Shown here in pieces: positions 21,949 through 47,330 of a stretch of DNA of 64,000 nucleotides (position 1 is its first letter; each line of letters starts with the position of its first letter). The notes beneath the pieces are model-generated. The model had not been told where the DNA came from and made no database searches. It saw only the letters and a list, made by a program, of their open reading frames with translations. Source of the stretch: Synechococcus sp. GTDB taxonomy: Bacteria; Cyanobacteriota; Cyanobacteriia; PCC-6307; Cyanobiaceae. Location: positions 1,184,001 through 1,248,000 of the forward strand of contig JBJBCN010000002.1 in the NCBI GenBank assembly GCA_047285805.1, written 5' to 3'. The translations under genes and the position numbers were made by a program.

Positions 21949-22053
21949 ACAGTTGCATCTGGTCACAACTGCCAGATGCTTGGCCGCCCACCGAGGTCGG
22001 CCCAAGTCCCCACCCCCCTGAGAATGGACCCAACGGTCCACGTTTGAGGCGCA

Positions 22054-22659
22054 ATGATCAATCGCAATCGGATCTCCTTGAAACGGACTGCAATCCAGCT
22101 CGCCGCCCTTGCTGGCTGTGGCGCAGCCCTCACCGGCGTTCAGATTGGCTTGAACCCCAAACCAGCTCTGGCGCAAGGGACTCCCAGCATCATGGAATTC
22201 CGCTGGGATAACACCAAGGACTACAGGAAGCTCTACTACTTCACGACGAACACGGTTCGTCAACAGCGTGCTGAATACTATTTTTTGCTTAAACCTAAGG
22301 ATCGCAAAACAGCGATCTTGAAGTTGGCGATTTCGATTCCCAGTAACTTCGACACAACGATTGATCCCGACAAGATCAAGCTCTGCTTCATGAAGTCGGG
22401 GAGCATGACCAAGCGAACCCGCTGCGAAGAGACCATCCCCGCGACGGTGGAGGTCACCACGGATGGGCGCTCGATCGAAATTTTCCCGGACACCCCGGTT
22501 CCGGTAGGCAAGACCATTGGGGTCTATATGAAGGTGATCAACCCACCCAGCGCTGGGATGTTCCAGCTCAATGCACTGGCCCAGGCCCCTGGCGCGGTGC
22601 CGATCTCCGGTTATCTGGGCAGCTGGCTGATCCAGGTGGATGCCACCTCGGATTTCTGA
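22054..22659 (+). CDS. DUF2808-like exported protein
   Basis: Signal peptide, EFRWD, NPPSAGMFQ..YLGSW; typical position upstream of rpmH. Confidence 0.75.
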   Translation: MINRNRISLKRTAIQLAALAGCGAALTGVQIGLNPKPALAQGTPSIMEFRWDNTKDYRKLYYFTTNTVRQQRAEYYFLLKPKDRKTAILKLAISIPSNFDTTIDPDKIKLCFMKSGSMTKRTRCEETIPATVEVTTDGRSIEIFPDTPVPVGKTIGVYMKVINPPSAGMFQLNALAQAPGAVPISGYLGSWLIQVDATSDF

Positions 22660-22716
22660 GTCACCTCGACTGATAAATTCTTGGATTGACGTTGAAGGCG
22701 CAGCCGAGCCGGAGCC

Positions 22717-22854
22717 ATGACCAAGCGCACCCTTGAAGGAACCAGCCGTAAGCGCAAACGGGTGTCCGGTTTCCGTGTTCGTATGCGGACCCACACCGGT
22801 CGTCGCGTGATCCGCTCCCGCCGCAAGCGCGGCCGGGCCCGTCTCGCGGTCTGA
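22717..22854 (+). CDS. rpmH: 50S ribosomal protein L34 (absent from ORF track)
   Basis: [45 protein letters not shown]. Confidence 0.97.
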
Positions 22855-22930
22855 TCCCCGCCACTCTCTAGAGGGCTTCATCGCGAAGCCAAACATCGCC
22901 CCCTCCGCCAACCCCGCGTAGCCCCAAGCC

Positions 22931-23311
22931 ATGGCGCTCTCTCGGGAACACAGACTGAGGGGGCGTTTTGTCTTTGATCGGATCTACCAAAAAGGTCGCC
23001 GCATCCACGGCCAATGGATGGTCCTGAGAACCCTGCCCGCCGAACCCCAGCTGCTGAAGAGAGATCCCAGGGACCGGCATCCTCTGAGCTGCCGCCTCGG
23101 GGTGGTGGTGAGCAACAAAGTCAGCAAGCGCTCGGTGCAACGCAACCGCCTGAGACGACTGCTGCATGGCCACCTCAGCCGACAAATCGCCCACCAGTGC
23201 GAAGGGTTCTGGCTGCTGATCTCGCTGAAACCCGGCAGCGCAGACGCAGAAGAGCAGGTCCTACTGGGAGAATGTTCAGAACTCCTTGCCAAGGCAGGAC
23301 TGAGACCATGA
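22931..23311 (+). CDS. rnpA: Ribonuclease P protein component
   Basis: HRLR..FDRIY..G, VVVSNKVSKRSVQRNRLRR. Confidence 0.95.
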   Translation: MALSREHRLRGRFVFDRIYQKGRRIHGQWMVLRTLPAEPQLLKRDPRDRHPLSCRLGVVVSNKVSKRSVQRNRLRRLLHGHLSRQIAHQCEGFWLLISLKPGSADAEEQVLLGECSELLAKAGLRP

Positions 23312-23760
23312 GCGCCGCCTCCAAACCCGCTCCCGTGGCCCCGGGGGCCAGCAACAATGAAGAGGTCTTCTATGAAGGCGGTCCGGCCAAAGGTGATCTG
23401 ATCACCAATCTGCTGTTTGGCCTCACTCTGATCGGCATTCCGTTTGCCGTCGGAGCCTTGGTGCGCGCCCTCTGGCTTCGTTTCCGGATCACCAGCCGTC
23501 GTGTGGAAGTGACCGGCGGCTGGCTCGGCCGAGACCGCACCCAGGTGGTCTACAGCCAGATCCGTGAGGTCCGCTCGGTCTCCCGTGGCTTCGGCTTCTG
23601 GGGTGACATGGTCGTGGTCCTCAGCGACGGCATGAAGCTGGAAATGCGCGCCGTTCCTCGCTACCGCGATGCTCAGGCCTTCATCGAGGCCCGACTGAAG
23701 ACCGGTTCCGCCGCCAAGAGCTCTGGCACCGCCGGTTTCGGTGGCGACGCCGCCGCCTGA
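23308..23760 (+). CDS. Bacterial PH-domain protein
   Basis: FYEGGPAKGDL..RFRITSRR..WGDMV; between rnpA and yidC. Confidence 0.85.
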   Translation: MSAASKPAPVAPGASNNEEVFYEGGPAKGDLITNLLFGLTLIGIPFAVGALVRALWLRFRITSRRVEVTGGWLGRDRTQVVYSQIREVRSVSRGFGFWGDMVVVLSDGMKLEMRAVPRYRDAQAFIEARLKTGSAAKSSGTAGFGGDAAA

Positions 23761-23801
23761 GACACTGACTCACACCCCTTAACCCCTCCGTTAGCGACGC
23801 C

Positions 23802-24938
23802 GTGATCGGATACATCTCCGACAACCTGCTGCTGCCAATCCTGGATTTCTTCTACGGATTGGTACCGAGCTACGGGCTCGCGATCATTGCCCTAACAGTG
23901 GTGATTCGCCTTGCTCTCTTCCCCCTGAGCGCAGGCTCGATCCGCAATGCCCGCCGCATGCGGATCGCCCAGCCGGTGATGCAAAAGCGCCAGGCCGAGA
24001 TCAAGGCGAAATACGCCAATAATCCCCAAAAGCAACAGGAAGAGCTGGGTTCCTTGATGAAGGAGTTCGGCAGCCCCCTCTCCGGCTGTCTCCCCCTGCT
24101 GGTGCAGATGCCGATCCTGTTTGCACTGTTTGCCACCCTGCGGGGATCACCGTTCGCCGACGTCCCTTACACCCTGAATTTGAAGGTGTTGCCAGCCGAT
24201 CAGATCGCTGCGGTCGAACCCAAACCCTTCAACAGCGCCAGTCACTCCATCTTTGTGACCAGCACGGATCACGTGCCCGTGATTGCCAGCCTGGAGAAGG
24301 GCACCAAATTGGGCGTAGGGGATACCGAAACCGTCAGCCTGCACACCAAGGACGGCTCTAGCTTCGCCTCAGTTCTGAGCGGCATTGAGAACGGCTACTC
24401 CTTTGCTCCCACCTGGTCAGTCACCAAGGGTGAGGAAGTGGTCAGCGTCGACCAAAACGGTGCCATCCAGGCCATCTCCCCTGGTGACGCCACGGTCGAG
24501 GCCAAGATCCCTGGCATAGCTGCACGCAGTGGGTTCCTCTTCATAAAGGCCCTGGGCCAGGTTGGCTTCTACACCGACGGCGCCATCAACTGGGACATCG
24601 CCATCCTGGTGGGCGGCTTCGGCATCACCCTCTTCCTGAGCCAGATCCTCTCGGGCATGGGCATGCCCGCGAACCCCCAACAGGCCACCGCCAACAAGAT
24701 CACCCCAGTAATGATCACCGGGATGTTCCTGTTCTTCCCCCTGCCCGCAGGGGTGCTGCTCTACATGGTCATCGCCAACGTCTTCCAGGCAATCCAGACC
24801 TTCCTGCTTACCAGAGAGGCCCTGCCGGACAACCTACAGAGCATCCTCGATAAGCAACTCGCCGCCGAGGCCAAAACCGTAACGGCCACTGTCACCGGCA
24901 CCAGCCGCATGCCGTTCGAACCGAAGCGCAAGAAGTAG
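23802..24938 (+). CDS. yidC: Membrane protein insertase YidC
   Basis: [36 protein letters not shown]. Confidence 0.97.
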
Positions 24939-24941
24939 GCC

Positions 24942-25484
24942 ATGGGCGACGGCCTCCAGACCGGAGATCCCCTCCATCCAATGCCGCTCGAGGAGCTCCA
25001 GCTTCTTGAGCGGGGCAAACACTGGACTATCGATCAACGACTCAGTGACCTCGACAGCCTCCCCCCCGTCCGCGGTCACCTGCACGCGCTCCATCGTGGC
25101 AATGTTCTGGAGTTGGATGGCGAAGCCAACACCATCGTCACCCTCTGCTGTGACCGCTGCCTGCAGCAGTTCAACCATCCCCTGAGCTTTCAAACCCGCG
25201 AGGTCCTCTGGCTCGGGGAACAGGCAAGAGAGCAGGGAATGGATCTAGAGAGCGTCCTTGAAGCCGGTAGTGAGGTCATCGACCTCGATCCTGATGCACT
25301 CACCGAAAGCATGGATCCCCGGGCGGATTTCGATCCCGAGCATTGGGTCTTTGAACAACTCAATCTCCAGCTGCCAGTAGTCAATCGCTGCGGAGCTGAC
25401 TGCCCTGGTCCCAAGCTGAAGGCCGAGCCCGGTGATGAACCGATGGATCCCCGCTGGGCGGCCTTGAAGAAACTGAACCCATGA
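24942..25484 (+). CDS. DUF177/YceD family protein
   Basis: CDRCL, C-terminal DPRWAAL. Confidence 0.9.
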   Translation: MGDGLQTGDPLHPMPLEELQLLERGKHWTIDQRLSDLDSLPPVRGHLHALHRGNVLELDGEANTIVTLCCDRCLQQFNHPLSFQTREVLWLGEQAREQGMDLESVLEAGSEVIDLDPDALTESMDPRADFDPEHWVFEQLNLQLPVVNRCGADCPGPKLKAEPGDEPMDPRWAALKKLNP

Positions 25485-26968
25485 GTCAAGCCTGGGCAGA
25501 CCACCTCGATCTGCTGATCCGGGCCCGGACGCCGATCCTCTGGATCCGCAGCCAAGAGGAAGAACGCATCGCGAACCTGCTCGCTGAAACGGCAAAACGC
25601 CTCGATCAACGGTCCCTGGCCCGCTGGGATTACATCAGTGGCTTGAGGGGATGGGCCGGCCGCGATGCGGAGGCCGCCCGCAATCCGTTAGCGGCCCTGG
25701 AAAGCCTCAGCGCCTTGCCGGCCGAACAACCCGCGCTGTTGGTGCTCCACGATTTCCATCGCTACGCCGACGACAGCAGCATCTGCCGCAAGCTTCGCAA
25801 CCTGGCCTCGAGCCTGCGCCAACGGCCGCAAACCCTTGTGATCACAGCCGCGGAGTGGCAACTCCCCCTGGAACTGGAGGAGTGCATCACCCTGTTGGAT
25901 CTTCCGCTGCCCAACCAACAGGAGATCCAAGCCTTGCTGGGGAACATCGCCCAGGCCAGCGGACAGGCCATCGGAGCGGAGCTACTGGAGCAACTGACAC
26001 ACAGCTGCAGTGGTCTCAGTGAGCAGCGGATCCGGCAGGTAGCCGCCAGGGGCCTCGCCAGTCGAGGCCAGCTGGGCAGTGCGGACCTCGACGAGGTACT
26101 AGAGGAAAAACGCCAAGCGATTGCCCGCAGCGAACTGCTCGAATATTGCCCGACCGAAGCCACCCCAGCGGACATCGGCGGACTCGATGCCCTGAAGCGC
26201 TGGCTCGAGCAACGCCATATGGCCTTCAGCGACGAGGCGCGCCGCTACGGCCTGCCACTGCCGCGGGGGGTGTTGCTGGTGGGCCCCCAGGGCACGGGTA
26301 AATCCCTGACCGCCAAGGCCATCGCCCACAGCTGGAGCATGCCGCTGCTGCGCCTGGATGTCGGACGGCTGTTTGCCGGCCTAGTGGGTGCCTCAGAGGC
26401 GCGAACCAGGGACATGATTCAACGGGCCGAGGCCATGGCCCCCTGCGTGCTCTGGATTGACGAGATCGACAAGGGCTTTGGCAGTGCCGATGGCCGCAGT
26501 GATGGGGGAACCAGCCAACGGGTGTTGGCGAGTTTGTTGACCTGGATGGCGGAGAAGAGCAGCGCCGTCTTTGTCGTCGCAACCGCGAATGGTGTGGAGA
26601 AACTGCCCGCAGAGCTGCTGCGCAAAGGCCGCTTTGATGAGATTTTTCTGCTTGATCTACCCGACGCCCAAGAACGGCGAACGATCCTTGATTTGCAACT
26701 GAGGCGCCGGCGGCCGAATCATCAGATCCCCCTCGATGTTGTCGTGGATCGCACCCAGGGGTTCTCGGGAGCAGAGCTCGAGCAGGTGGTCATCGAGGCG
26801 ATGCACCAGGCCTTCAGCGAATCCCGTGAATTCGGCGAGGCTGATCTCAGCAGTGCGGCCGCCCAACTGGTGCCCTTGTCCCGCACCGCGCGCGAACAAT
26901 TGGAGCAACTGCAGCAATGGGCCAGCAGCGGCCGGGCCCGCCCTGCTTCTACACATTGCGGCGGGTAA
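25481..26968 (+). CDS. ycf46: Ycf46-like AAA ATPase
   Basis: IGGLDALKRWL, GPQGTGKS, WIDEIDK, ELLRKGRFDEIF. Confidence 0.9.
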   Translation: MSQAWADHLDLLIRARTPILWIRSQEEERIANLLAETAKRLDQRSLARWDYISGLRGWAGRDAEAARNPLAALESLSALPAEQPALLVLHDFHRYADDSSICRKLRNLASSLRQRPQTLVITAAEWQLPLELEECITLLDLPLPNQQEIQALLGNIAQASGQAIGAELLEQLTHSCSGLSEQRIRQVAARGLASRGQLGSADLDEVLEEKRQAIARSELLEYCPTEATPADIGGLDALKRWLEQRHMAFSDEARRYGLPLPRGVLLVGPQGTGKSLTAKAIAHSWSMPLLRLDVGRLFAGLVGASEARTRDMIQRAEAMAPCVLWIDEIDKGFGSADGRSDGGTSQRVLASLLTWMAEKSSAVFVVATANGVEKLPAELLRKGRFDEIFLLDLPDAQERRTILDLQLRRRRPNHQIPLDVVVDRTQGFSGAELEQVVIEAMHQAFSESREFGEADLSSAAAQLVPLSRTAREQLEQLQQWASSGRARPASTHCGG

Positions 26969-27046
26969 AGAAGACCAACGCCAGGTAAAGAAGCCCGCTG
27001 ATCGTTCGCGTTGGCTTAGAGGGTCGCAGCAAGCTGCATTGAAAGC

Positions 27047-27220
27047 ATGGAAGCCGCGATGGATCAACGCCCTGCCCTCGCCACACAACTCCTGGTTGCT
27101 GGCCTCGGCGCTGGTGTCATCACCAGCTACGCGGTCGCCCAGGGACAGAATCCCCTGACCGCCCTGAGCATTACGGTGTTCTCAGCCTTGGCGGCCGTGA
27201 TGGTCGGCCAGGTCCTCTAA
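27047..27220 (+). CDS. Small hydrophobic hypothetical protein (57 aa)
   Basis: MEAAMDQRPALATQLLVAGLGAGVITSYAVAQGQNPLTALSITVFSALAAVMVGQVL*; host-like codons. Confidence 0.7.
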   Translation: MEAAMDQRPALATQLLVAGLGAGVITSYAVAQGQNPLTALSITVFSALAAVMVGQVL

Positions 27221-27240
27221 ACCCGTGACCACTTTCTGCC

Positions 27241-27465
27241 ATGCCCGCAGACACGCTCTCGATCAGTCAGCGTGAAAGCCTGATCGACGCCCTGCGTTCC
27301 TGCCGCAGCACCGAAGAACGCTTGGCGTTTGCCAGGGACTACGCCAAAACCGGTCGCGAACCCCTTTGGGAGTTGATCTGCGACCTCTTGATCAGCCGCT
27401 CCATTTCCCGGGCCTTGGCGGCCCACTGGCTGAAAGACCTGATTGAAGAGGGACAAACCTCTTAG
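27241..27465 (+). CDS. Small hypothetical protein
   Basis: 74-aa ORF, host-like codons (PLWELICDLLISRSISRALAAHWLKDL). Confidence 0.7.
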   Translation: MPADTLSISQRESLIDALRSCRSTEERLAFARDYAKTGREPLWELICDLLISRSISRALAAHWLKDLIEEGQTS

Positions 27466-27623
27466 CGGGAGGTCCGCTCGGCATCCGCCTTGATCGAAGC
27501 CTCAAGCTGACGCCGCTTGTCTTCGATCAGATGGGCACTGCTGACAAAGGCACAGGCCGTATGACCATCTTTCGTGATGCAAACCTTGTAACCGAGGCCA
27601 TCGGTTGTGGGTTCAAAGTCCAT
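27462..27623 (-). CDS. Small hypothetical protein (53 aa)
   Basis: MDFEPTTDGLGYKVCITKDGHTACAFVSSAHLIEDKRRQLEASIKADAERTSR*; resembles, from memory, small picocyanobacterial/cyanophage proteins. Confidence 0.6.
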   Translation of the reverse strand: MDFEPTTDGLGYKVCITKDGHTACAFVSSAHLIEDKRRQLEASIKADAERTSR

Positions 27624-27823
27624 CAGATGCTTGCCGTTACGCCATTAGAGCTCGCAGGCTCGAAACCAACAAGGGATTGTCACCACTAGTGTTCAAGCCC
27701 GCAACGCAGAAGATAGTTATGGACGGACGGCTTGTGGTGATCGGGTTACTGCTCGTCTTTGCAGGCTTGTACGTCTCGGTTTACTTCGTTACCCAGGGCA
27801 TCACCCCTCCCGGCTGAAGCGAA

Positions 27824-28021
27824 ATGATTGGCCCCAGTGCAAGGTCCTGGCGCAGTTTCGCGATCAAGATTGGCCTTTTTTGGATCGCAAAGTTGTGGAT
27901 CTGCCAGGTCGATGTCACACGGCCGATCTGCGATGTTGTGGAGCGCGGCTTTCTCCCCTGCCTGCTGACATTTGCCGTGATGGATTTCCTGATCTTGCCC
28001 TGGCTTCGACGCAAGCGCTAG
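27824..28021 (+). CDS. Small membrane hypothetical protein
   Basis: 65 aa, two hydrophobic segments, basic C-terminus. Confidence 0.5.
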   Translation: MIGPSARSWRSFAIKIGLFWIAKLWICQVDVTRPICDVVERGFLPCLLTFAVMDFLILPWLRRKR

Positions 28022-28080
28022 CAAGTGCTGAAACAGGCAGCTAAAACAAAAGAGCGACCCCAACTCAGACCCGCGACTGC

Positions 28081-28311
28081 ATGTTCAAGATCTATCGGAA
28101 GGTCTCTGAATTTCTGGCTCGCTTTCTGACGGTTGGTCATCCCCTACGGATTCCAGCGCTGCTGGTCTCGCTGTTGTTTTTCTGCTTGGCCACCACCTGG
28201 ACTTTTTGGGCAACCTGGGGGGTTTTGAGCGGCTTGCTGGGCCTCTCAAATGTGATCGGAATCAGTGCCGGCGTGGGAATGAACATCGCAGTCCTCAAGT
28301 TGCCCGCTTAG
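28081..28311 (+). CDS. Small membrane hypothetical protein
   Basis: 76 aa, two hydrophobic segments. Confidence 0.5.
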   Translation: MFKIYRKVSEFLARFLTVGHPLRIPALLVSLLFFCLATTWTFWATWGVLSGLLGLSNVIGISAGVGMNIAVLKLPA

Positions 28312-28481
28312 AGACGGCCAAAACGGAGATAGGCCAGGTAACAGATCAGGGTTAAGGCCAAGACCTGGGCCAGAGAGGGCACCAGCAAGCAGCCAACAAG
28401 TACCCCAAGCGTGAGCAAGACGATAGTCCCGGGCCGCTCGGGGTTGAGCGACTTCAAGGGCCCTCCGCGAAACGGTTTCAT
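28308..28481 (-). CDS. Small membrane hypothetical protein (57 aa)
   Basis: MKPFRGGPLKSLNPERPGTIVLLTLGVLVGCLLVPSLAQVLALTLICYLAYLRFGRL*. Confidence 0.45.
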   Translation of the reverse strand: MKPFRGGPLKSLNPERPGTIVLLTLGVLVGCLLVPSLAQVLALTLICYLAYLRFGRL

Positions 28482-28577
28482 CGGGGGAGTGCGGCTACAC
28501 CCCTTATCCAGCAGAAGCGAGGGTCCGACCAGGGGAAGAAATGCTGATGAAATGTTTGACTTGACATCAGCGAGGCA

Positions 28578-28811
28578 TTGGCTTGGATCGTCATTAACAG
28601 GGCGGAGCTGATGGACGGCTACTGGTATCAGTTCAACAACGGCGATCTGCTCTGCTCAGCGATCCATCCCTCCGAAGTGGATTGCCAGCCGGCGACGGCA
28701 CGTCAAGGGGAAATCACTTATCAGGTCTTCAGCAGTCGTGAACGCTTCCGGTTGCTCCGGCTGCATCGCCAGAGGGGCACACCATCGATGGACCTCAATC
28801 AATGCGCCTAA
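28578..28811 (+). CDS. Hypothetical protein
   Basis: 77-aa ORF with plausible composition. Confidence 0.4.
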   Translation: MAWIVINRAELMDGYWYQFNNGDLLCSAIHPSEVDCQPATARQGEITYQVFSSRERFRLLRLHRQRGTPSMDLNQCA

Positions 28812-28993
28812 TGCGCACCATGACAGCCACGGGCAGGGCCGTGCGCTGCATCACCTTGATCGGGCTGTTCGCCTGGATGATCAAGTATCAACCGAGGAGA
28901 CCAAAAACCAGCGAAAGTGGACTTCCGTTCTCCGGCATGGGCTCACCTAGGCCGGGCATGCGCCGCTTGGGGTACTGAAAGGAAACCAATCGA

Positions 28994-29042
28994 ATGTTTC
29001 GCGACATCTGCCCAGCCCTTACCAAGGAGCCTCTTTCAACTA
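28994..29042 (+). repeat. attL: stranded native-looking 5' end of the aminotransferase gene (MFRDICPAL...)
   Basis: ATGTTTCGCGACATCTGCCCAGCCCTT...TTCAACTA; shares TGCCCAGC and TTCAACTA with 36899-36933; AAGGA upstream. Confidence 0.8.
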
Positions 29043-29762
29043 GAAACACAAGCCCCAAGAAGCCAGTTTTTGCAATAGGTTAAAAACCGAAGAGGCACCG
29101 GCCGTACAACACTTCTACCAACGCGATAGCAGGTGACCGCTGAGGAGATTGTTGAGAAAAGCCCTAGGAGCAGCAGCGGCAGAAGCAACGAATCACGAGA
29201 GAGCATCCAACAGAAGGGCGCCACTGGGGCTTCTGAAGTCGCTGGGGGGCACTAGAAGGGGCTTCTGAATTCTTCCCGAAACTACGAGCATCACTCAGCT
29301 GGGTCTATCGGGGCATGAGTAGCTGAAGAACTTGAATGAGGCCCGCACTTGAACTAGGCCCGCGGTCCTCAGCTCTATTTGAAAACGATCAAGCGGTCAA
29401 AAAAGCACATCACCGCTGAAGCCGCTGCCAGATCATTTGTTCACGACCTCCGGGTCGAGCAAGGGGTGGGGGTGGGGGAATCGCTAAAACCCTTCTTGTC
29501 TGCTTGGTCGGCTACTTGACTGAATCAGTTGGAGCTGTTGCCATTTCTGCTGCTGCTGGCCGAGGCGAGATCACGTCTCGACTTACTAGAAGTCGCCTAA
29601 AGACAACTAAACGCTCAAGCCATCAGTAGCGACATTTTCAACCAAATACCAATGCAAAATCAAACCGATCTTTGCATTATAAATCACATCATTCGTTCCG
29701 CGAGCGATGCTTCAAATATGTCACAGTGATGCGTGGCGAGCAAAGGAAGCTTCATGCTTTGC

Positions 29763-30539
29763 CTAAGCCTTAATTCGTCGAGTGGGAGGTTTGAGAATCG
29801 GAAGAGAACGCTTCTTGAAGATCAGATCAAAGTAAACACCGGCATTGGCAGTATTTCCCTCCACTATCATTGTGTAACCAGCTTTCTCAAAAAAGCGACT
29901 AATCTCTTGGCATGGCTGTCGCGATACCGTTATGGACCTATTCTTTGTATCAACACGATTTGGCGGAGACACAATCACTGGCGGCAGAAGTTCGTAGCCA
30001 TAATTAGTTAATAGAGAAAAAACCTCCGTAACTGTTGGAGACCAGTGATAAGCGCTAAAGTCCGGACAGGAAACTCTTATGAAGTCAAAGTTGTCGAGAA
30101 TATCCACGCTCTCACTAAGGATTAAATACTCAGATCCGCAGGTGTCGAGCACTAAATAGTTATATTTCTGCAGGTCAACCTGATTTTTGTCTGCAAAATC
30201 ACGTAGCGTCAATGCGTCAACTTCAATCATTTCACCTTGCTGTGCATCTGCAAAAACATTGGTTATCTGGTCAAAGCCAAACTTGGATGAATATCGTGGG
30301 TTATCAGTTGACGGAAAAAAACAATCCTTTTGGGTTTTGTCTGAAATGAATGCGTGATGAAATCTATGGATTGCCACATCCGCAGACAAATTCCTCAAGT
30401 TATCTACAGATTGACGATTGGCATCAATCCAAATGCATGGAACATCAATAGAGGAGTACAAATTCCTTTCCGGGGCATCACCTGCACCAATATGAATGGC
30501 GCCATTCACTCCAACTGGCACAAAATCAGCGTACATCAA
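29763..30539 (-). CDS. FkbM-like SAM-dependent methyltransferase
   Basis: GAIHIGAG..E, WIDAN, YNYLVLDTCGSEYLIL. Confidence 0.7.
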   Translation of the reverse strand: MMYADFVPVGVNGAIHIGAGDAPERNLYSSIDVPCIWIDANRQSVDNLRNLSADVAIHRFHHAFISDKTQKDCFFPSTDNPRYSSKFGFDQITNVFADAQQGEMIEVDALTLRDFADKNQVDLQKYNYLVLDTCGSEYLILSESVDILDNFDFIRVSCPDFSAYHWSPTVTEVFSLLTNYGYELLPPVIVSPPNRVDTKNRSITVSRQPCQEISRFFEKAGYTMIVEGNTANAGVYFDLIFKKRSLPILKPPTRRIKA

Positions 30540-30662
30540 AAAACATGTTTTTATAGATTATCACTGCTTGCCATTGGGTTGTCAAGGCCCTTAAGAGGAG
30601 CCTTATGTAGGCAGATTGATTAGCCATTCAGCTCAAGATGCTGAACCTCAAGAACCTTTCCC

Positions 30663-31295
30663 TTAATTTAATGAATGTGTTGTGAAGCACCACTGCAGAA
30701 AGCTTTGAATAATGCTGACCTGTGAAAGATCAATACAGTGTCCACCCTTGAATCGCGAAAGAAGGGCCACATTCTTTCTTGAACGAAAGCGTGCGAAAAG
30801 CTCCATCCCTTTGTGAAATGGAACTACCGTGTCATTAAGTCCGTGAATAAACAATGTGGGTGGCATCTTCTGCGGAATCTCGACTTCGTCAAGAGGATAT
30901 CCACTACATATACATAATCCAGCTAGCGGTAGATCTATTGCAGCCTTGCAAGCTATTGCTGCGCCCTGCGAAAAACCCAGTAGCACTGTTTTCTCAAGAG
31001 CTATCTCGACACTCATTCGTCGGAGGTCTTCTTTCAACAAATTGCAGTCATATTGATTGGAATCACCTCCGACTTCATACCATTGATACCCTTTTCCATT
31101 GGGACTTTTGCTTGGTGCCCGAAGAGACAAGACGTTGAATTTGATATTTAGGTGAGACAAGCAAAATCTATAGAGATCGTTTTCATCAGTACCTGAACCA
31201 TGGAGTAGCACAAGGCGCTTGCCTGAATCATGGTTCTTACTCAATCTACAGACATGCTTTAGTGTTGATCCAGAAGAATCAAATGTCATCCCCAT
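30663..31295 (-). CDS. Phospholipase/carboxylesterase (alpha/beta hydrolase)
   Basis: LLHGSG, GFSQGA, HGLNDTVVP, GGH catalytic-triad motifs. Confidence 0.88.
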   Translation of the reverse strand: MGMTFDSSGSTLKHVCRLSKNHDSGKRLVLLHGSGTDENDLYRFCLSHLNIKFNVLSLRAPSKSPNGKGYQWYEVGGDSNQYDCNLLKEDLRRMSVEIALEKTVLLGFSQGAAIACKAAIDLPLAGLCICSGYPLDEVEIPQKMPPTLFIHGLNDTVVPFHKGMELFARFRSRKNVALLSRFKGGHCIDLSQVSIIQSFLQWCFTTHSLN

Positions 31296-31386
31296 TTTGC
31301 CAACCCATTAGAATTAAAGCAATTCTCAGCTCAAACATCAATCCTCGGGCGCTCGACGGTGAAATAACTATAGATTCTAACTTAAA

Positions 31387-31707
31387 CTAAAAGAAATACC
31401 TTCGCCATGATTCCCAGGCAGATACTCGCAACCTAGTGTCGGAACCGCGGGGGCCCCTGCGTAGCTTTTTGGTATCTCGCTCATATTCCTTTTCTTTTTT
31501 CTTGATAGAAAGTATTCTGGCAGACTGCTCTAGATTGCGGTATCTTATTTGTTCAGCACTTAATTGTGTCTGAGCTTTTTGATCTGTCGATAAATGTATC
31601 TTTTTGGATTCTGGCTTTGCTGTCCATCGTCGCATTAGGCGACTGACATTGCGAGCCAAGACATAAGCGAGTACAACGCCAAGGGTAAGAGAGAGCAAAG
31701 ATATCAT
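31387..31707 (-). CDS. Hypothetical protein with N-terminal TM anchor
   Basis: 106-aa ORF, hydrophobic N-terminus, basic C-terminus. Confidence 0.55.
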   Translation of the reverse strand: MISLLSLTLGVVLAYVLARNVSRLMRRWTAKPESKKIHLSTDQKAQTQLSAEQIRYRNLEQSARILSIKKKEKEYERDTKKLRRGPRGSDTRLRVSAWESWRRYFF

Positions 31708-31976
31708 TCGCCTTAAGGTGTATTGCTACAATTCTACCTGCCCAGTCTGGTTTGTGAGGTCATGCATGCATGTTGCCAGGTGGCTGTGTTCTCTAGCGGA
31801 CTATTCGAAGCCTGAGAGGGGGCCAAGAGACATCTAGTTTCCTTATGGCTCTATGAGGTGGCTTTGGTAATTTGCGGCGGGAAGTTGTGGCGTATGTGGC
31901 TGGAGACCCAGTTGTGCGATGCAAGGCCTTGAGCTGGGTTCGCGAAGATCGATCCAATTGGACGTTGCTGATCCCC

Positions 31977-32450
31977 ATGGCGAGGTTCGTCATCCTTATG
32001 GTCTTGGCCCTAGTGGGCTGCTCCGGTCAGGCCAACGCACTAGCCAGCGTGGTGATTGCCTCCTGCTACGAAGGCGACAAATGCAGCACGACCGAAGGGG
32101 AGAGCGTTGGGCTGGCCTGTATCGAAACCCCGAAGCTGAGTGGCCGCAATGCTGGTCTCTTGCCGGCCAAGGCTGCTGGCGACTATCTCCACAGCAGGGT
32201 GGTCGGAAAGGAGTTCTTGATTCGCCGTGTCAACACTGACCGCTATGGCAGGACTGTGGACGATCTCTACCTGAAGCCCTTTGAGTCGGTTGGGCTAGGT
32301 CTGGTACGCAGTGGCCATGCGGTCATTTATCGGCGCTTCGCCAAGCAGGGTCCTTGGGTCAACGAACTTGTAGTCGACGTAGTCCCACAGCAGCATGATC
32401 TGACCAACGATGGCGTGCAGCCTGAGCAAGAGGACGCTCACTCTAACTAA
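31977..32450 (+). CDS. Thermonuclease (SNase)-family protein, catalytically degenerate
   Basis: SCYEGDKC..VGLACIETPKL..DRYGRTV..LVRSGHA. Confidence 0.7.
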   Translation: MARFVILMVLALVGCSGQANALASVVIASCYEGDKCSTTEGESVGLACIETPKLSGRNAGLLPAKAAGDYLHSRVVGKEFLIRRVNTDRYGRTVDDLYLKPFESVGLGLVRSGHAVIYRRFAKQGPWVNELVVDVVPQQHDLTNDGVQPEQEDAHSN

Positions 32451-32848
32451 TTAGAATCAAGCGAGAACTAGAAGCCGCTGCCGCTATTTTGTCAAGAATA
32501 CCACGCAAGATTCTAATTGCAGTCATTTTGTGTGCTTGCAACTATAGAGTATGCGCCTAATTATTTTGACCAGACATATAGAATCCGCATCTTTAGAAAA
32601 TGTGGCAAGCTACGGATAACGGGTTACACGCAAAGGTGGGTTCAATCCTGGATGCAGAATTGATACCGAAAGCACAAAGAAACATAGATTTTACCTCGAA
32701 ACAATCGAACTCGTCATAAAAGAAGTACAGCGAAATCACCATTGCAAAAATGAATCAGCGATTGGCGGTTAAACACCCTAAAACCGATATTGCTATGAAC
32801 TGAGCTGCGCTAGGAGGTGAGTGATTGGAACGATCTTATATTGAACTC

Positions 32849-32875
32849 TAAAAAAGCCGCCCACTTGGGCGGCTT
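32849..32875 (-). terminator. Intrinsic terminator of the OMP gene
   Basis: AAGCCGCCCA-CT-TGGGCGGCTT hairpin next to an A-run (U-tract on minus strand). Confidence 0.8.
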
Positions 32876-32899
32876 GGCGAACATCTCCTACACCTCTAA

Positions 32900-33664
32900 T
32901 CAGAGGCGAATACGAACCCCTGCACGAGCGCCGTAGGAATACAATGGGGAATAATTAAGCCCATTAATGGAGAACGCTGTAGAACCATTGTAAGTAGCCT
33001 CGACAAATACCTCAGCTTTCTCAGTTGCTGCATATGCAACACCAGCCTTAGCGAGGTAGCCGAATGCTCCAGCATTGCCACCATCTACTTTGACACTTTG
33101 AGAAAATGTGCCAGTTGCTCCTGAGGTCAACGAGGCACTACCGGACTGCGTAGGGACGGATACATTTGTGTAGCCTATTCCTCCACCCACATAGGGAGTA
33201 AACTTGGTCTTGGTTCCAATGTCATAATAAGCACTCGCAAACACACTATTTGTACTGAGAGTTCCGGTACCGGTAATAGTGAAGCCGTACGGAACATCGG
33301 TGTATGTATTGCCAAGGTTGGTGCCACTCTCATGACCGCTACCGGTGATTTCACCGATCATTGGGCCATTAAAAAGATAGGTCAGCTCAGCTCGAATATC
33401 TCCGAAGTCGTACCCAAAACCAGCTTCGCCAGCAAAGCCCACCCCAAGATCAAGTTGAGGGGTAAGGAAACCGGAATAGGTATCTCCGTTGTCGAATACT
33501 CCCGAGTAGGACTTTTCATTATTACCGGTATTATTGGTCCATGAAGCACCAGCTCCTAGCGTCGCGTAGAAACCTTTAGTTCCTTTGGGAGACTCTTGAG
33601 CGAGCACCGGAGAGCTGAGAGCGAAAAGCGTAGCTGCTGCGGCAATCTTTAGAAGGCCCTTCAT
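32900..33664 (-). CDS. Outer-membrane beta-barrel protein (OMP_b-brl/opacity-like)
   Basis: Signal peptide, GFYATLGAG, GYDFGDIRAELTY, FTPYVGGGIG, C-terminal GVRIRL. Confidence 0.85.
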   Translation of the reverse strand: MKGLLKIAAAATLFALSSPVLAQESPKGTKGFYATLGAGASWTNNTGNNEKSYSGVFDNGDTYSGFLTPQLDLGVGFAGEAGFGYDFGDIRAELTYLFNGPMIGEITGSGHESGTNLGNTYTDVPYGFTITGTGTLSTNSVFASAYYDIGTKTKFTPYVGGGIGYTNVSVPTQSGSASLTSGATGTFSQSVKVDGGNAGAFGYLAKAGVAYAATEKAEVFVEATYNGSTAFSINGLNYSPLYSYGARAGVRIRL

Positions 33665-34065
33665 TTGACCAGAGGTTCAATAGGCCTTATTTAAGCACAA
33701 GCGTACCGAATGCAAACCCGTCATATGGCAATATTTCGTCTGACCCAGCTAGCGCAAATCAGCATTTATAATTAATTAAGTGCATTTGAAGCGCAGGCCT
33801 CTGCAACCCTTCAAGTGATATGCGCCTATCAACATTAAAACTCATAGCATTTCGTCCGGCGCTTGGTATGGCTTTTTTGAAGATGCACTACACGCTTATA
33901 GTCTGAGCTTACACGGTTGCTTGGATTGCGTTTCAGGTTTTTCCCGAATTACTACTTGCTGCAGGTGCCATTGAGCTTGATGCATTTTGGAGTTGAAAGG
34001 ATAGTTGGAACCATATCAATCCAACGAAATAATAACCTTCGGAGCCTCAGCTCCCATTGGTTAGT

Positions 34066-34913
34066 TCATGCCTTCTGAGATGTTGTAAGTGTTAGCTCAA
34101 GCTCTAGCTGCTCATACCGAATGATGAGAGTGACTGGTGCACACTTCCACTGGTCTACAAGCTCTGCCATATGGTCAAGCCTGAGTTCGAAGCTACTCAG
34201 CAAATCCATTGATGCCGGATCGTCCTGGATGCTTGCCCAGTCAGTAGCTTGAGCCGTCTTGACCAACTGGCTGACCAGATCCTTGGTTTGATCCTCCTCG
34301 AAGACACTCCCGTTCAACTTGGTTTTACAAGATCGGTTTCCTGAGTTCTCGGCTGGATATTTTGCTTGCAGCTTCTCAAGCTCTCGGACAATTAGCGACT
34401 TCCCTTCAGACAACTCATAACTATTGCTTGCTTCAGTGTGTCCTTCCCAGTTCATCCGAGCGACCTGATAAAGAGCTGACACTTGATAGGACTGCAAGTA
34501 TTTGAATTCATCCTCTTTCCTTACCTCAAATCCCTCTTCCGATTCAAGCCCGTCATTCATTTCGCAACTGATTCTTTTTAATTCACTTTCTAGAAACTCC
34601 CCGGAAGTACTCAGCTTTGAAACTTTAGAGGGCTTAAGACCTATTTCCTGGAGATACACACGCAGTCGCTTCAAGAAGGTCCGGAGTTACCACTTCTCCA
34701 TGCCGACTTGGAAGAAGCTTTTGACCAGAGTCAGCCCTGCTTTTTGTAGCATGATTCTGCATCGTTTGTGTACTGGTAAAGATTATATAGATCTTTGATG
34801 CACTCTTCTCCTGCCCTGCTGACGATCTCGTTAGCAAGATCAGTGAAACGGTGATCATTGCTACCGTCCTCTTGAGTTAGATTGATAGTTGTAGATAGAT
34901 TCATTTTTTCCAC
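34066..34913 (-). pseudogene. Broken hypothetical element gene (ORFs 34731-34913 and 34066-34674 probably one gene)
   Basis: The 202-aa frame continues upstream across one TAA (34687-89) as MLQKAGLTLVKSFFQVGMEKW and overlaps the end of the 60-aa ORF at an A-run. Confidence 0.55.
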
Positions 34914-35304
34914 GTGGATACTTTTTGGTTGCCACCTGCGGGCAACTCATCCTGGCAAATGTCATGGCGCCAAGCTTGAATTAACTAACTGTCTAGTTAG
35001 TTCACCTATATTCGGTTTGGGAAGTGTTGGCGTCGGCTCCGGCCGTAGCACTCACTCCGCAAACACGACTTGCATCGAATGATGGACTTCACCTGAGTTC
35101 ATGGTGCCACCGGTATGTTACTCGCGTCGGGCTAAGGGGGTTGAATAACGGGTACTACTGCACAGTGCCTGAAGCTGTGCTCTACCTGGCATCCAACAAC
35201 GCGAACAACGAACTACTCCAACCTGTTGTGGTTGGCATTTGGAGTTGCCCCTTTCTTTAGAGATGAATCCACTTGTCTAGTTTTACCGCCTTGAAACTGG
35301 CTTG

Positions 35305-35650
35305 ACGCGTTCTTCTCTGTATACGGGGGGTCTTCTTTTCCCTGTATACATGTGCTATAAAATTGTCTGTATAAGGGTACTAATGCTCTTTCTGCTTACA
35401 CATGACGGACTTGTCTTCTTGAATGATTCTGAGATTGGTTTCTTCTGTATACGGGTGCTATCGCTCTCTGTTTTATCGGTGACGAACCTGTCCCCCTCCT
35501 ATACATCCGCCATCACTTCTCCCCGTATAAGCCCGTTATCAATGGTCTCCCTCCCTGTATGAGGGGCGGATCAGTTTTCCCCTATACAACCTTTAGCAGT
35601 CTTCTCGTCTACACCCGTTATTGCCTTTGTCTGTATACACCCGACATCAC
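35305..35650. repeat. Degenerate 25-26-bp periodic array, ~13 units, pyrimidine tract + GTATAC core
   Basis: Core starts at 35319, 35344, 35369, 35394, (35421), 35447, (35473), 35499, 35525, 35557, 35582, 35607, 35633. Confidence 0.8.
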
Positions 35651-35679
35651 CATTCCAAAACAAGTAAGCAAGAAACTCA

Positions 35680-36849
35680 CTACAGAGATCTAACGGCCTC
35701 TACCAACCGCTGCCAAGGAACAGATCCATAGCTTCCAGTAACATTCGATGGCTCGTGGCCAAGCAATTTCCCGATTATTACCTCGTTGAAGCTATACTCT
35801 CTGAATTATGTCGCAGCATGATGCCGCAGCCCATGTGGATTAACACCCTGTAAAGGATTTACAGGGTTTAGACAAGTTATCCCCCAACGTCCATCAGGTC
35901 CTTGTAGACGCGGCTAGACAAAGCCCGTAGAGGATCGAAGCGGGGTGAGTATCTCTTCAAGCTCAGGATGCAGTGGTATTTCTCGATGAGAAGCACTTCT
36001 CTTAAGCAAACGCTCTGGATTAGGACGCACAACAATCCGATCCTCAAGCAAATCCTCGACCCTCAAGCCAGCAATTTCTGATAAGCGAGCCCCTGTGTAA
36101 CAAAGAAGCTTGAGGACTGGGACATAAATGCTTCCGGTCCAGTCTGTGACTGGTTTGACAACATCAAGACGATCTTTCTTGACGACCTTAAGGCGCTTGG
36201 CCAAGCCCCTAAAAATATGCGTTGAATTAGGCTTAACTTCTTCAAGAATCGACCAAAGGACACTCAAATAATTGATTGTGGTCTTGGCTGTATTCGCACT
36301 CACCCGTTCAAGCAAGTAAGTCCGGTAGAAGGCAGCGTGATCTTTGGTGCATAACAGCGGTGAACCAACACCGCAAAATCCCATGAACAGATCTAGCTGC
36401 TTGCACCAGCTATTCCGCGTCCGCCTTGCTGGCTGCTTGAGCTTGGTCGCAACAGCAATCAGATCCTCCGCCGTGTAGACGGGCTCAGGAATCAGCTCAT
36501 GGGTGACGACAGCGACCATCCGCTCTCGTTGGGCCTGACTCAACTGCGGATCAACCCGCGCCCCTTCCAGCAGAAGCTCCTGCACCTCAGGATCGTCGAG
36601 AGCCGCGGTGCAGGGAAGCCAATCGATCTGCTCATCAGGGCTCAGCAGCAACTCCCCACGGGCAATCGCGATCTCTCGATCAGTACTCGCCAGAAAGCCT
36701 GGAAGCCTCGCTCTGGCTTCGTTGAGGGTCTTGCCACCACCTTCCTTCCAAGTGGCCTTACAGACGATCTGACGCACGTCAGATAGCACCGCTCGTTGAA
36801 GGACGTAAGACTGGCGTGCCTTGTAGATGTGGCTGGGAATTTTGGGCAC
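35680..36849 (-). pseudogene. Tyrosine recombinase/integrase with two premature stops
   Basis: YTGARLSEI and HREIPLHP; same frame past TAG 35914-16 gives HGLRH, and past TAA 35806-08 gives LLGH...Y, ending TAG 35680. Confidence 0.9.
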
Positions 36850-38047
36850 CGCTACCAACGCTTCTACCAACGCAAACGCAAGTAGCCTTAGGGATCTTTG
36901 CCCAGCACTAGCCAACAAGACCTACTTCAACTACGGCGGTCAAGGTCCCCTGCCGACACCGTCGCTGGAGGCGATCAACCAGAGCTGGAGAACCATTCAG
37001 AAGCTCGGGCCGTTCACAACCGATGTCTGGCCCTTCATCGAGCAGGAAACAAGCCGCCTGCGCAGAGCCCTTGCGTGCTGGTGCGGGGTTGGCCCCCATC
37101 GAATGACCCTGACGGAGAACGTCACTAGCGGCTGCGTCCTCCCCCTCTGGGGCTTGCCCTGGGAGGCCGGTGATGAGCTCCTCATTAGCGACTGCGAGCA
37201 CCCCGGTGTCGTGGCCGCCTGCCAGGAATTAGCTCGCCGCCACCAGTTGAGCCTGGCCACCCTGCCTGTGCTCGCGCTCTGCCAGACCACGCCGCAGGCA
37301 GAACTGGAGTCCGCTGTGCTGCAGCAGCTCGAGGATTACCAAACCCCGCGGACCCGGCTCGTGGTCCTCTCCCACCTGCTCTGGAACACGGGGGCGGTGA
37401 TGCCGATCCCGGCTATCGCCCATCAGCTCAAGCATCACCCCAAACAACCCTGGCTGCTGGTGGATGCGGCCCAATCCTTGGGCAGCCTTCCCGTCGCCCA
37501 AGCGGCGCAGGCATCCGACATCTACGCCTTCACCGGCCACAAGTGGTGCTGCGGCCCCGAGGGCCTCGGCGGCGTGGCCCTCTCGGAGCGGGTCATCGAC
37601 CAAGGCCAACCGACCCTGATTGGCTGGCGCAGCCTCGAGCAAGAGAGCAGCACCAGCAGCAGCTGGCACCCCGACGGTCGGCGCTTTGAAGTCGCCACCT
37701 CCTGTGTGCCCCTCCTCAGCGGCCTACGTCAATCGCTGGAGCTCTTGGCCGCAGAAGGAAATGACGACGATCGCCTCGAAAGGATTCGTCAGGGCAGTCA
37801 GCAGCTCTGGTATGGGTTGCAATCACTGCCGGGCTGCAGCACCCTGCTGCCGGAAGCTCCGCCCGCCGGATTGATCAGCTTCAAGCTGCAGGGCATTGAG
37901 ACCGCCCAAGCCGTGACGGCCCTCGGTCAAGCAGGGATCTGGATCCGCCGCCTCGATTCCCCGGATTGCCTCCGGGCCTGCACCCACATCTGCACCACCC
38001 CCACTGAAATCGAGGGGTTAATCGGGGCGCTGGCCAAGGTCAGCTAG
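36827..38047 (+). CDS. Class-V PLP aminotransferase (cysteine/cystine lyase-like)
   Basis: [36 protein letters not shown]; start codon ambiguous because of element insertion. Confidence 0.88.
36884..36933 (+). repeat. attR: element-supplied recoded 5' end (SLRDLCPAL...)
   Basis: Homologous to 28994-29042 but with AGC at the ATG position. Confidence 0.8.
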
Positions 38048-40984: not shown

Positions 40985-41143
40985 ATGCCTGCCATTGCGC
41001 AGAAAGCCAAGGCCCTAAGCGGGAAAGGCGTGGTCCTGTCCTATGTGGACAAACCCGAGCACTTCTACTGGCGTGAACAGGTGCCAGGTGCCAGGTACCA
41101 AGCAGTGCCGACATCGACTACTGCCGAACGCCACCACAATTGA
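40985..41143 (+). pseudogene. Probable integrase N-terminal remnant (internally deleted)
   Basis: MPAIAQKAKALSGKGVVLSYVDKPEHFYWREQVPG directly inside attL; no catalytic domain; tandem CAGGTGC repeat at the presumed break. Confidence 0.45.
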
Positions 41144-41562
41144 AGAAGCACTGGCTGAATGCTTTGTTCCCATCTGGGGGTATCGCCTCAGATCAGGTCA
41201 GTCGAAAGTATTCAGGTGACCGATGGTCACTCTTCGACACTCCAGTCCCTTTCAGTGGTGCAACAGCTGAAAGGGATTTTTTGCAGTCAGGTTTGAGCAA
41301 GAAAAAACCCCTAAGTGTTCGACCTCAGGGGTTCGCGGTCCTGTCCCTTGACCTCATCAGGTCTATTCGGGGTCTTGTATCCACACGAGTAGGACAACCG
41401 TCGCTGAGGGTTCGGTCAAGGACGCTCACCCCAGGAAACCGCCCATTGAGAAGGGCGGCACTCACGCCGCCCTAGGCACCTGACCCCTCTGAACAGCAGG
41501 TGGGTCTGTTGGTGTCTGAACCCTTGATAGGTCGCACAGCAGGCAAACGACACCAGCAAAAA

Positions 41563-41655
41563 CACCTGTTCAGGAGGAGGGGATCCCTGCACCCAGTGCC
41601 AGCACCTCACTGAAGAGATCCTCCGCCATCAGGTTGATCCCTGATGAAGGTGGAG
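41563..41655 (-). pseudogene. Degenerate copy of the 3' half of the Cys-rich gene at 42128-42307
   Basis: LHQGST*WRRISSVRCWHWVQGS vs LHEGSIPKQRISSVKCWNWEQGS. Confidence 0.75.
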
Positions 41656-47324: not shown

Positions 47325-47330
47325 CTTCAG

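Follow-up and report, generated by a model that had tools for sequence, protein, structure and literature searches.

The 64,000-nucleotide stretch of DNA analysed here (the window; Synechococcus sp., assembly GCA_047285805.1, contig JBJBCN010000002.1, positions 1,184,001 to 1,248,000 of the forward strand) carries the first codons of one gene twice, at the two ends of an island. The gene downstream of the island matches the structures of the L-cysteine/cystine C-S lyase C-DES (PDB 1elq/1n2t, E 1e-93), a pyridoxal phosphate (PLP) enzyme tied to the supply of iron-sulfur (Fe-S) clusters (PMC8300815). An initial annotation, made from the sequence alone, had read the arrangement as an element inserted in the first codons of a PLP enzyme gene, and as a possible recombinational switch. 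The question that this locus raises is how a core gene can be interrupted in its 5′ coding end and remain in use. Our answer, to which we give a probability of about 85%, is that the element restores C-DES on insertion, so that the gene would stay expressed from an element-supplied end.

Empty and occupied sites

In the related genome G033 the site is empty: the sequence corresponding to window positions 22002-29042 is joined directly to the C-DES body, giving the contiguous N-terminus that the initial annotation had predicted for a relative. In G023, a 7,635-bp element lies at the same place, and both the stranded copy of the C-DES 5′ end and the integrase are intact. The C-DES site is therefore a target of site-specific insertion in the 5′ coding end, empty in one relative and occupied in another, which bears out the original proposal of an integrative element. 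The case for insertion rests on these relatives, because the left copy in the window does not by itself rise above genome-wide chance: its similarity score was 46-47, whereas an unrelated genome window, the best of 47,494, reached 49; as cut for this scoring, the windows split the copy. The similarity on which the initial annotation had leaned was thus no better than chance for the left copy alone, whereas a relative, G033, does join the segment to the gene body. The AAGGA motif at the left junction, previously labelled a ribosome-binding site, is present, but it reads AGGGA in G033 and AGAGA in G023, and the label is weak for that reason.

Two or three copies of the C-DES 5′ segment were found in 16 of 24 genomes tested. 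A single copy was seen in seven, of which six are multi-contig assemblies and the other is the window, where decay hides the left copy from the pattern; one genome had none. The 14 complete single elements measured 6.3-16.6 kb; in G260, elements lie in tandem at C-DES.

The attachment site

In 15 junction pairs, excluding the tandem array of G260 and the window, one end of the element was compared with the other. TTCAA was identical in 15/15 pairs, and the base just after TTCAACTA in only two. The presumptive crossover lies in or beside TA(C)TTCAA, within which the identity map does not fix the exact cut. A second shared block, TGCCCAGC, was considered as the crossover and rejected, because the identity between the two ends continues as far as TTCAACTA and is lost beyond it. 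In the window, the left and right copies are separated by 7,890 bp for TGCCCAGC and by 7,891 bp for TTCAACTA, an inequality due to a 1-bp deletion in the left copy. Of the 17 elements counted (G260 once), 13 have a stranded copy that terminates in TAG.

Direct 9-mers common to both inner arms, at similar distances, were present in 15/16 elements (one doubtful), compared with 316 of 3,200 random pieces; in the window, the repeat is CTACCAACGC, at 36852, 36864, and 29115. By analogy with lambda-type integrases (PMC8138268), these direct repeats are putative integrase arm sites. No symmetric core-type inverted repeat was found in a search made by eye only.

The element-supplied N-terminus

The same junction comparison upheld the proposal that the native start is stranded and that a recoded N-terminus comes with the element. 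The 14 codons leading up to the crossover were compared between element and stranded copy: of 210 codons in all, 47 differed synonymously and 24 non-synonymously. The proportions of changed synonymous (pS) and non-synonymous (pN) sites were 0.46 and 0.087, giving a pN/pS of 0.19; in view of the kinship among the 15 pairs, this does not amount to a formal test. To judge by these substitutions, the N-terminal copy of the element is clearly kept at the protein level. Of 23 right junctions examined, 22 were readable, and in all 22 an in-frame ATG, GTG, or TTG lies upstream with no intervening stop: 13 have an ATG at most 17 codons from the Tyr codon, two a GTG, three a TTG at 20 codons, and four a start only farther away.

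An integrase clade linked to C-DES

A three-sequence integrase profile matched 31 of 401 genomes of the host family (34 places). The integrase stood head-to-head with C-DES in 21/30 fetched loci, comprising all 20 with E <= 2e-93 and one fragment; the remaining nine, weaker loci sit at other genes. Integrases thus lie beside C-DES in at least 21 of the 401 family genomes. In a tree of 29 rows, from which the fragment (L078) was omitted, the 20 C-DES-linked integrases fell on one branch (support 100/99), which also holds a single long-branch row belonging to a different site. Outside the host family, the integrase was not found in a sample of 354 genomes of the class at 1e-25, nor in any of 53 candidate stretches of viral contigs, nor in phage records, and the core-plus-G pattern had 0 matches in viral contigs. 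A genome-contig scan with narrow patterns gave only two loci from 43 candidates.

By its gene content, the host of the window is probably a picocyanobacterium, and an 89%-identical integrase N-terminus occurs on a record titled Vulcanococcus sp. The same integrase accompanies picocyanobacterial genes in L047 under the title of an acetic-acid bacterium, a label that looks wrong. Distant integrases of the same profile were seen at other coding genes in L069, L075, and L070; by their look, we take the neighbours to be the 3′ end of a yajQ-like gene, the 3′ end of a glnA-like gene, and a nearby polyphosphate-kinase-2-like gene, respectively. Such distant integrases likely have further protein-coding targets.

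Decay and selection in this genome

Compared with G023, the stranded copy in the window has eight substitutions and a 1-bp deletion, i.e., nine events in 50 bp, whereas G023 and G033 differ at one of the same 50 bases. This decay is approximately the neutral change expected over the whole branch of this genome (35 synonymous changes at 275 sites). The distance from the ATG to the end of the core is 49 bp here, rather than 50 bp, so that excision at the real core would frameshift C-DES and not restore it, contrary to the suggestion that excision rejoins the start to the gene. The integrase is broken, as had been noted: it carries two stops (35914-16 and 35806-08) and a -1/+1 pair of frameshifts that cancel out, and the C-terminal region of the H-x-x-R, H, and Y catalytic motifs is lost behind the first stop. 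Among 25 amino acid differences from the G023 integrase, 16 were assigned to this genome, seven to G023, and two were ambiguous. With the integrase dead and the stranded start decayed, the state is locked, as the initial annotation had supposed. Judging from these two decays, the island is fixed here and the replacement 5′ end domesticated.

The C-DES body is stop-free and has accumulated 35 synonymous and 14 non-synonymous changes on this genome's branch (pN/pS 0.13; 0.16 in G033, with its empty site, and 0.03 in G023), and by this measure it is still under purifying selection. Since the gene stays constrained despite a decayed stranded start and a dead integrase, it appears to work from the element-supplied end.

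A model of gene restoration and its rivals

In the model that we favour, a small element with a lambda-type tyrosine integrase would recombine within TA(C)TTCAA, at codons 14-16 of the core gene C-DES. Its attachment site would carry synonymously recoded first C-DES codons together with a start of its own. Insertion would fuse the C-DES body in frame to this 5′ end, and expression would continue, while the native 5′ end would be displaced to the far border, its Tyr codon usually turned into TAG by the element. The empty and occupied sites, the boundary, the target-linked integrase clade, and the conservation of the replacement at the protein level, which were read from sequence, carry the model; the arm sites, circular intermediate, element-borne promoter, and start codon are presumptive.

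Several observations weigh against gene restoration, or soften it. No start lies close to the native position in the window-type junction (G000, G023, G004, and G025); the two candidates, ATG 36827 and TTG 36842, are dictated by the integrase start, which overlaps them on the opposite strand, and in G025 a stop comes after the ATG. No sigma-70-like promoter site was found in 36500-37100. Apart from the relatedness of the 15 pairs, several of the stranded copies are in turn older ends that stem from elements. The C-DES ratio of 0.13 exceeds that in G023 and those of four neighbouring genes (0.04-0.10), and selection on C-DES may for this reason be slightly relaxed; moreover, the branch of this genome may partly predate fixation of the island. 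Finally, the integrase tree leaves a single origin unproven (two changes; 26% of bootstrap trees recover a single clade).

The strongest rival adds to gene restoration without excluding it. It holds that the element acts as an expression rheostat: the gene stays whole, promoter and start are swapped, the level or control of C-DES changes, possibly through coupling to the head-to-head integrase promoter, and excision reverses the change. Integrase and C-DES starts do overlap here, and a dusA-targeting element lowers dusA expression via its own 5′ end (PMC8409611). In 15/15 of the other pairs, nothing has been lost from the stranded copy, so that excision there would restore the native start, although recent insertion would equally leave intact copies. 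Given also that the stranded copy has decayed in this genome and that the supplied starts differ widely among elements, we consider this reading unlikely.

Far less probable is a true on/off switch, as raised in the initial annotation, in which C-DES would be off while the element is in and programmed excision would restore it. The lack of a near-canonical start at the window-type junction and the TAG ends of stranded copies would suit such a switch, but if C-DES were off, its replacement N-terminus would not need to be conserved as protein, most members of the clade bring a clear start, and in this genome the native start cannot be restored, yet C-DES is intact and constrained. The conserved N-terminus, the in-frame starts at 22/22 junctions, and this constraint leave the switch unsupported. 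A fortuitous resemblance, or a small local duplication next to an unrelated island, draws on the unremarkable score of the window's left copy and is refuted by the empty site of G033, the same boundary in 15 pairs, and the target-linked integrase clade.

Repeated use of the site

Insertion at this site has been repeated, as seen in the tandem copies of G260 and in an element-like stranded end in G026. In a metagenome locus (L135), a full-length integrase match, replacement N-terminus, core, and inner-left arm are joined, and this attP-type junction may be that of an excised circle or a tandem. The metagenome pattern scan was loose: among the matches listed, at least eight of 118 stretches passed a C-DES-like filter. 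No excision joint skipping the island was seen among the joints listed in four runs, all of them as contigs, which drop rare variants.

In G028 (L035), C-DES begins with an element-like, TTG-led extension in a genome without a match to the integrase. Its start is nearly the same as the stranded segment in G026 (L032:5700-5795), and in both genomes two open reading frames (ORFs) lying upstream are presumably sulfotransferase-like. The G028 start thus looks like an older, domesticated element end; the stranded ends in G026 and in G260 likewise look as if they came from elements. If so, mobile elements have repeatedly replaced the N-terminus of a host enzyme, which in the end inherited it from them; this would explain odd start-codon calls for C-DES.

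Anatomy and gene content of the island

The features of the locus are collected in Table 1; the coordinates that the initial annotation gave for the motifs, the 29-aa (amino acid) ORF, and the shared blocks were all confirmed.

Table 1. Features of the C-DES locus, in window coordinates
Feature	Coordinates	Strand	Remarks
Host ORF, 58 aa	28802..28978	+	Adjoins C-DES start at the empty site of G033
AAGGA motif	28979-83		Position confirmed in sequence
29-aa ORF, ATG at 28994	28994-29083		Confirmed in sequence
Stranded native C-DES 5′ end (outer junction), decayed	28994..29042	+	Comparison with G023
TGCCCAGC blocks	29009-16 and 36899-906		Confirmed in sequence
Shared core TTCAACTA, left copy	29035..29042	+	Identity map, 15 junction pairs
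Integrated element, 7,891 bp	29043..36933		Interrupts C-DES at ~codon 16
Inner-left arm-type repeat	29104..29124	+	CTACCAACGC at 29115-29124, degenerate copy preceding
FkbM-type methyltransferase domain protein, cargo	29763..30539	-	PF05050, E 2e-5
Phospholipase/carboxylesterase, cargo	30663..31295	-	PF02230, E 1.9e-13
106-aa ORF, cargo	31387..31707	-	No Pfam match
Staphylococcal-nuclease homologue, cargo	31872..32450	+	PF00565, E 8.7e-8
Outer-membrane beta-barrel-like protein, cargo	32900..33664	-	PF01617, E 1.2e-5; also in G023 element
202-aa ORF	34066..34674	-	No Pfam match; partly common to G023
Tyrosine integrase pseudogene, reads into element	35680..36849	-	92% identical to intact G023 copy
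Element-supplied in-frame C-DES 5′ end	36827..36933	+	Candidate starts ATG 36827, TTG 36842
CTACCAACGC x2, direct, 12 bp apart	36852..36873	+	Within replacement reading frame
TTCAACTA, right copy	36926-33		Confirmed in sequence
C-DES body (L-cysteine/cystine C-S lyase orthologue)	36934..38047	+	PDB 1elq/1n2t, PF00266, stop-free

The island has a G+C content of 47.7%, compared with ~61% for the host contig, the value dropping from ~0.6 to 0.40-0.49 over most of 29500-36500. No tRNA gene lies at the junctions (the nearest is at 47330). A contig covering 28000-38500 showed 0 differences from the window; its run is possibly the source of this very DNA, and the agreement is not independent.

The integrase is the sole gene common to nearly all islands, while the cargo varies. 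The intact integrase of G023 matched PF00589 (E 8.7e-13) and, weakly and under the curated cut-offs, DUF6538 and a SAM-like domain. Six relatives (G210, G364, G389, G260, G272, and G007) have primase/helicase or small serine recombinase domains: VapE-like, PriCT-2, and AAA_25 primase/helicase domains occur in G210, G364, and G389, and a small serine recombinase in G210, G260, G272, and G007. Pfam scans found neither kind in the element of the window, no conjugation families among 79 island proteins, and no capsid, terminase, or other phage genes in the window ORFs or those 79 proteins. A prophage or phage-inducible chromosomal island (PICI) was rejected on the lack of phage genes and of integrase matches in viral contigs and phage records.

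Among the relatives (L119:13139-16360 and L121), the G142 element encodes a lanthipeptide synthetase (DUF4135 + LanC-like) and a fatty-acid desaturase, and ORFs that we take to be Nif11-like leaders are common to G026, G142, and G367. The G364 element (L118:6722-11042) encodes a 1,257-aa single-subunit RNA polymerase-like protein (PF00940); its neighbours are a VapE-like helicase and another tyrosine recombinase. Within the tandem array of G260 (L111:8569-11854) there are type I restriction-modification M and S genes.

Around the island, ~1.8 kb of small ORFs without a Pfam match (27221-28993) separates a 57-aa core gene (27047-27220) from C-DES; the 58-aa host ORF had no NCBIfam match either. 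As the 57-aa gene directly abuts the C-DES start in several relatives (L007, L016, and L020), the intervening sequence may be older leftovers of earlier visits. Just after rps4, a broken ORF (40985-41600) resembles an integrase N-terminus by eye, without a match among 120 fetched homologues, and may mark a second degenerate island. A stretch 71% identical to a non-coding part of the island (34998-35292) occurs elsewhere on the contig, at a distance of ~60 kb (C2:1280771-1281071), and G023 has two copies similar to the island segment.

Comparison with known systems

We found no literature naming C-DES as an integration site, although the TIGER/Islander tables and the tycheposon supplements may already list such islands; the main text of PMC12884075 contains neither 'lyase' nor 'aminotransferase' (0 occurrences each). 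The closest parallel is with the dusA-targeting islands, which replace the 5′ end of their target and leave the original as the outer border (PMC4482086, Farrugia 2015). There, as here, a housekeeping gene holds an integrase island in its 5′ end and receives a new 5′ end from it, the cargo varies, and only the integrase is universal. With one such island in place, dusA was still expressed, though at a reduced level (PMC8409611). The dusA islands differ in their targets (dusA, dusB, or dusC) and hosts (Proteobacteria, rather than picocyanobacteria), and their excision and expression have been demonstrated, whereas the C-DES element is described here from sequence. The C-DES element works like the dusA islands but is not a member by target.

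Insertion of the SXT/R391 integrative and conjugative elements (ICEs) restores prfC. They share with the C-DES elements insertion in the 5′ end of a core gene and the formation of tandem arrays, but are large and conjugative, with a 47-kb backbone (PMC5812530), compared with 6-17 kb and no conjugation-family match in 79 proteins here. Membership in SXT/R391 was rejected, the target being C-DES and not prfC, and no conjugation backbone having turned up in those 79 proteins.

Tycheposons and cryptic elements of Prochlorococcus (bioRxiv 10.1101/2020.12.28.424599) likewise have picocyanobacterial hosts and an inward-facing tyrosine integrase at one end. They also have optional primase/helicase genes and a small serine recombinase, of which domains were seen in six of the relatives and none in the window element, and they resemble the C-DES elements in cargo, tandem insertion, and island growth. 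Having no replication gene, the window element would count as cryptic or degenerate. The tycheposons described so far differ in integrating at seven tRNA or transfer-messenger RNA (tmRNA) genes, whereas C-DES elements use a coding 5′ end and must rebuild the gene. It is tempting, if speculative and rather improbable, to picture a tycheposon-like family specific to picocyanobacteria that lands in the 5′ end of an enzyme of Fe-S sulfur supply, each visit swapping promoter and N-terminus, retuning or coupling C-DES via the overlapping divergent integrase start, and the successive N-termini becoming domesticated.

The heterocyst nifD, hupL, and fdxN elements also lie inside cyanobacterial coding genes, which they inactivate until developmental excision, and bring no replacement end. 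The C-DES element supplies a conserved replacement, and the C-DES frame is open and constrained; the analogy that the initial annotation drew to nifD and hupL finds no support in this respect.

A mapped pair of integrase and attachment site, with a native core target that survives insertion, could serve genetics in picocyanobacteria, which are hard to engineer. The gene-restoring trick itself is known from other bacteria, while the C-DES target and this integrase group appear new, and they add a protein-coding integration hotspot for marine and freshwater picocyanobacteria, in which islands have been described mainly at tRNA genes.

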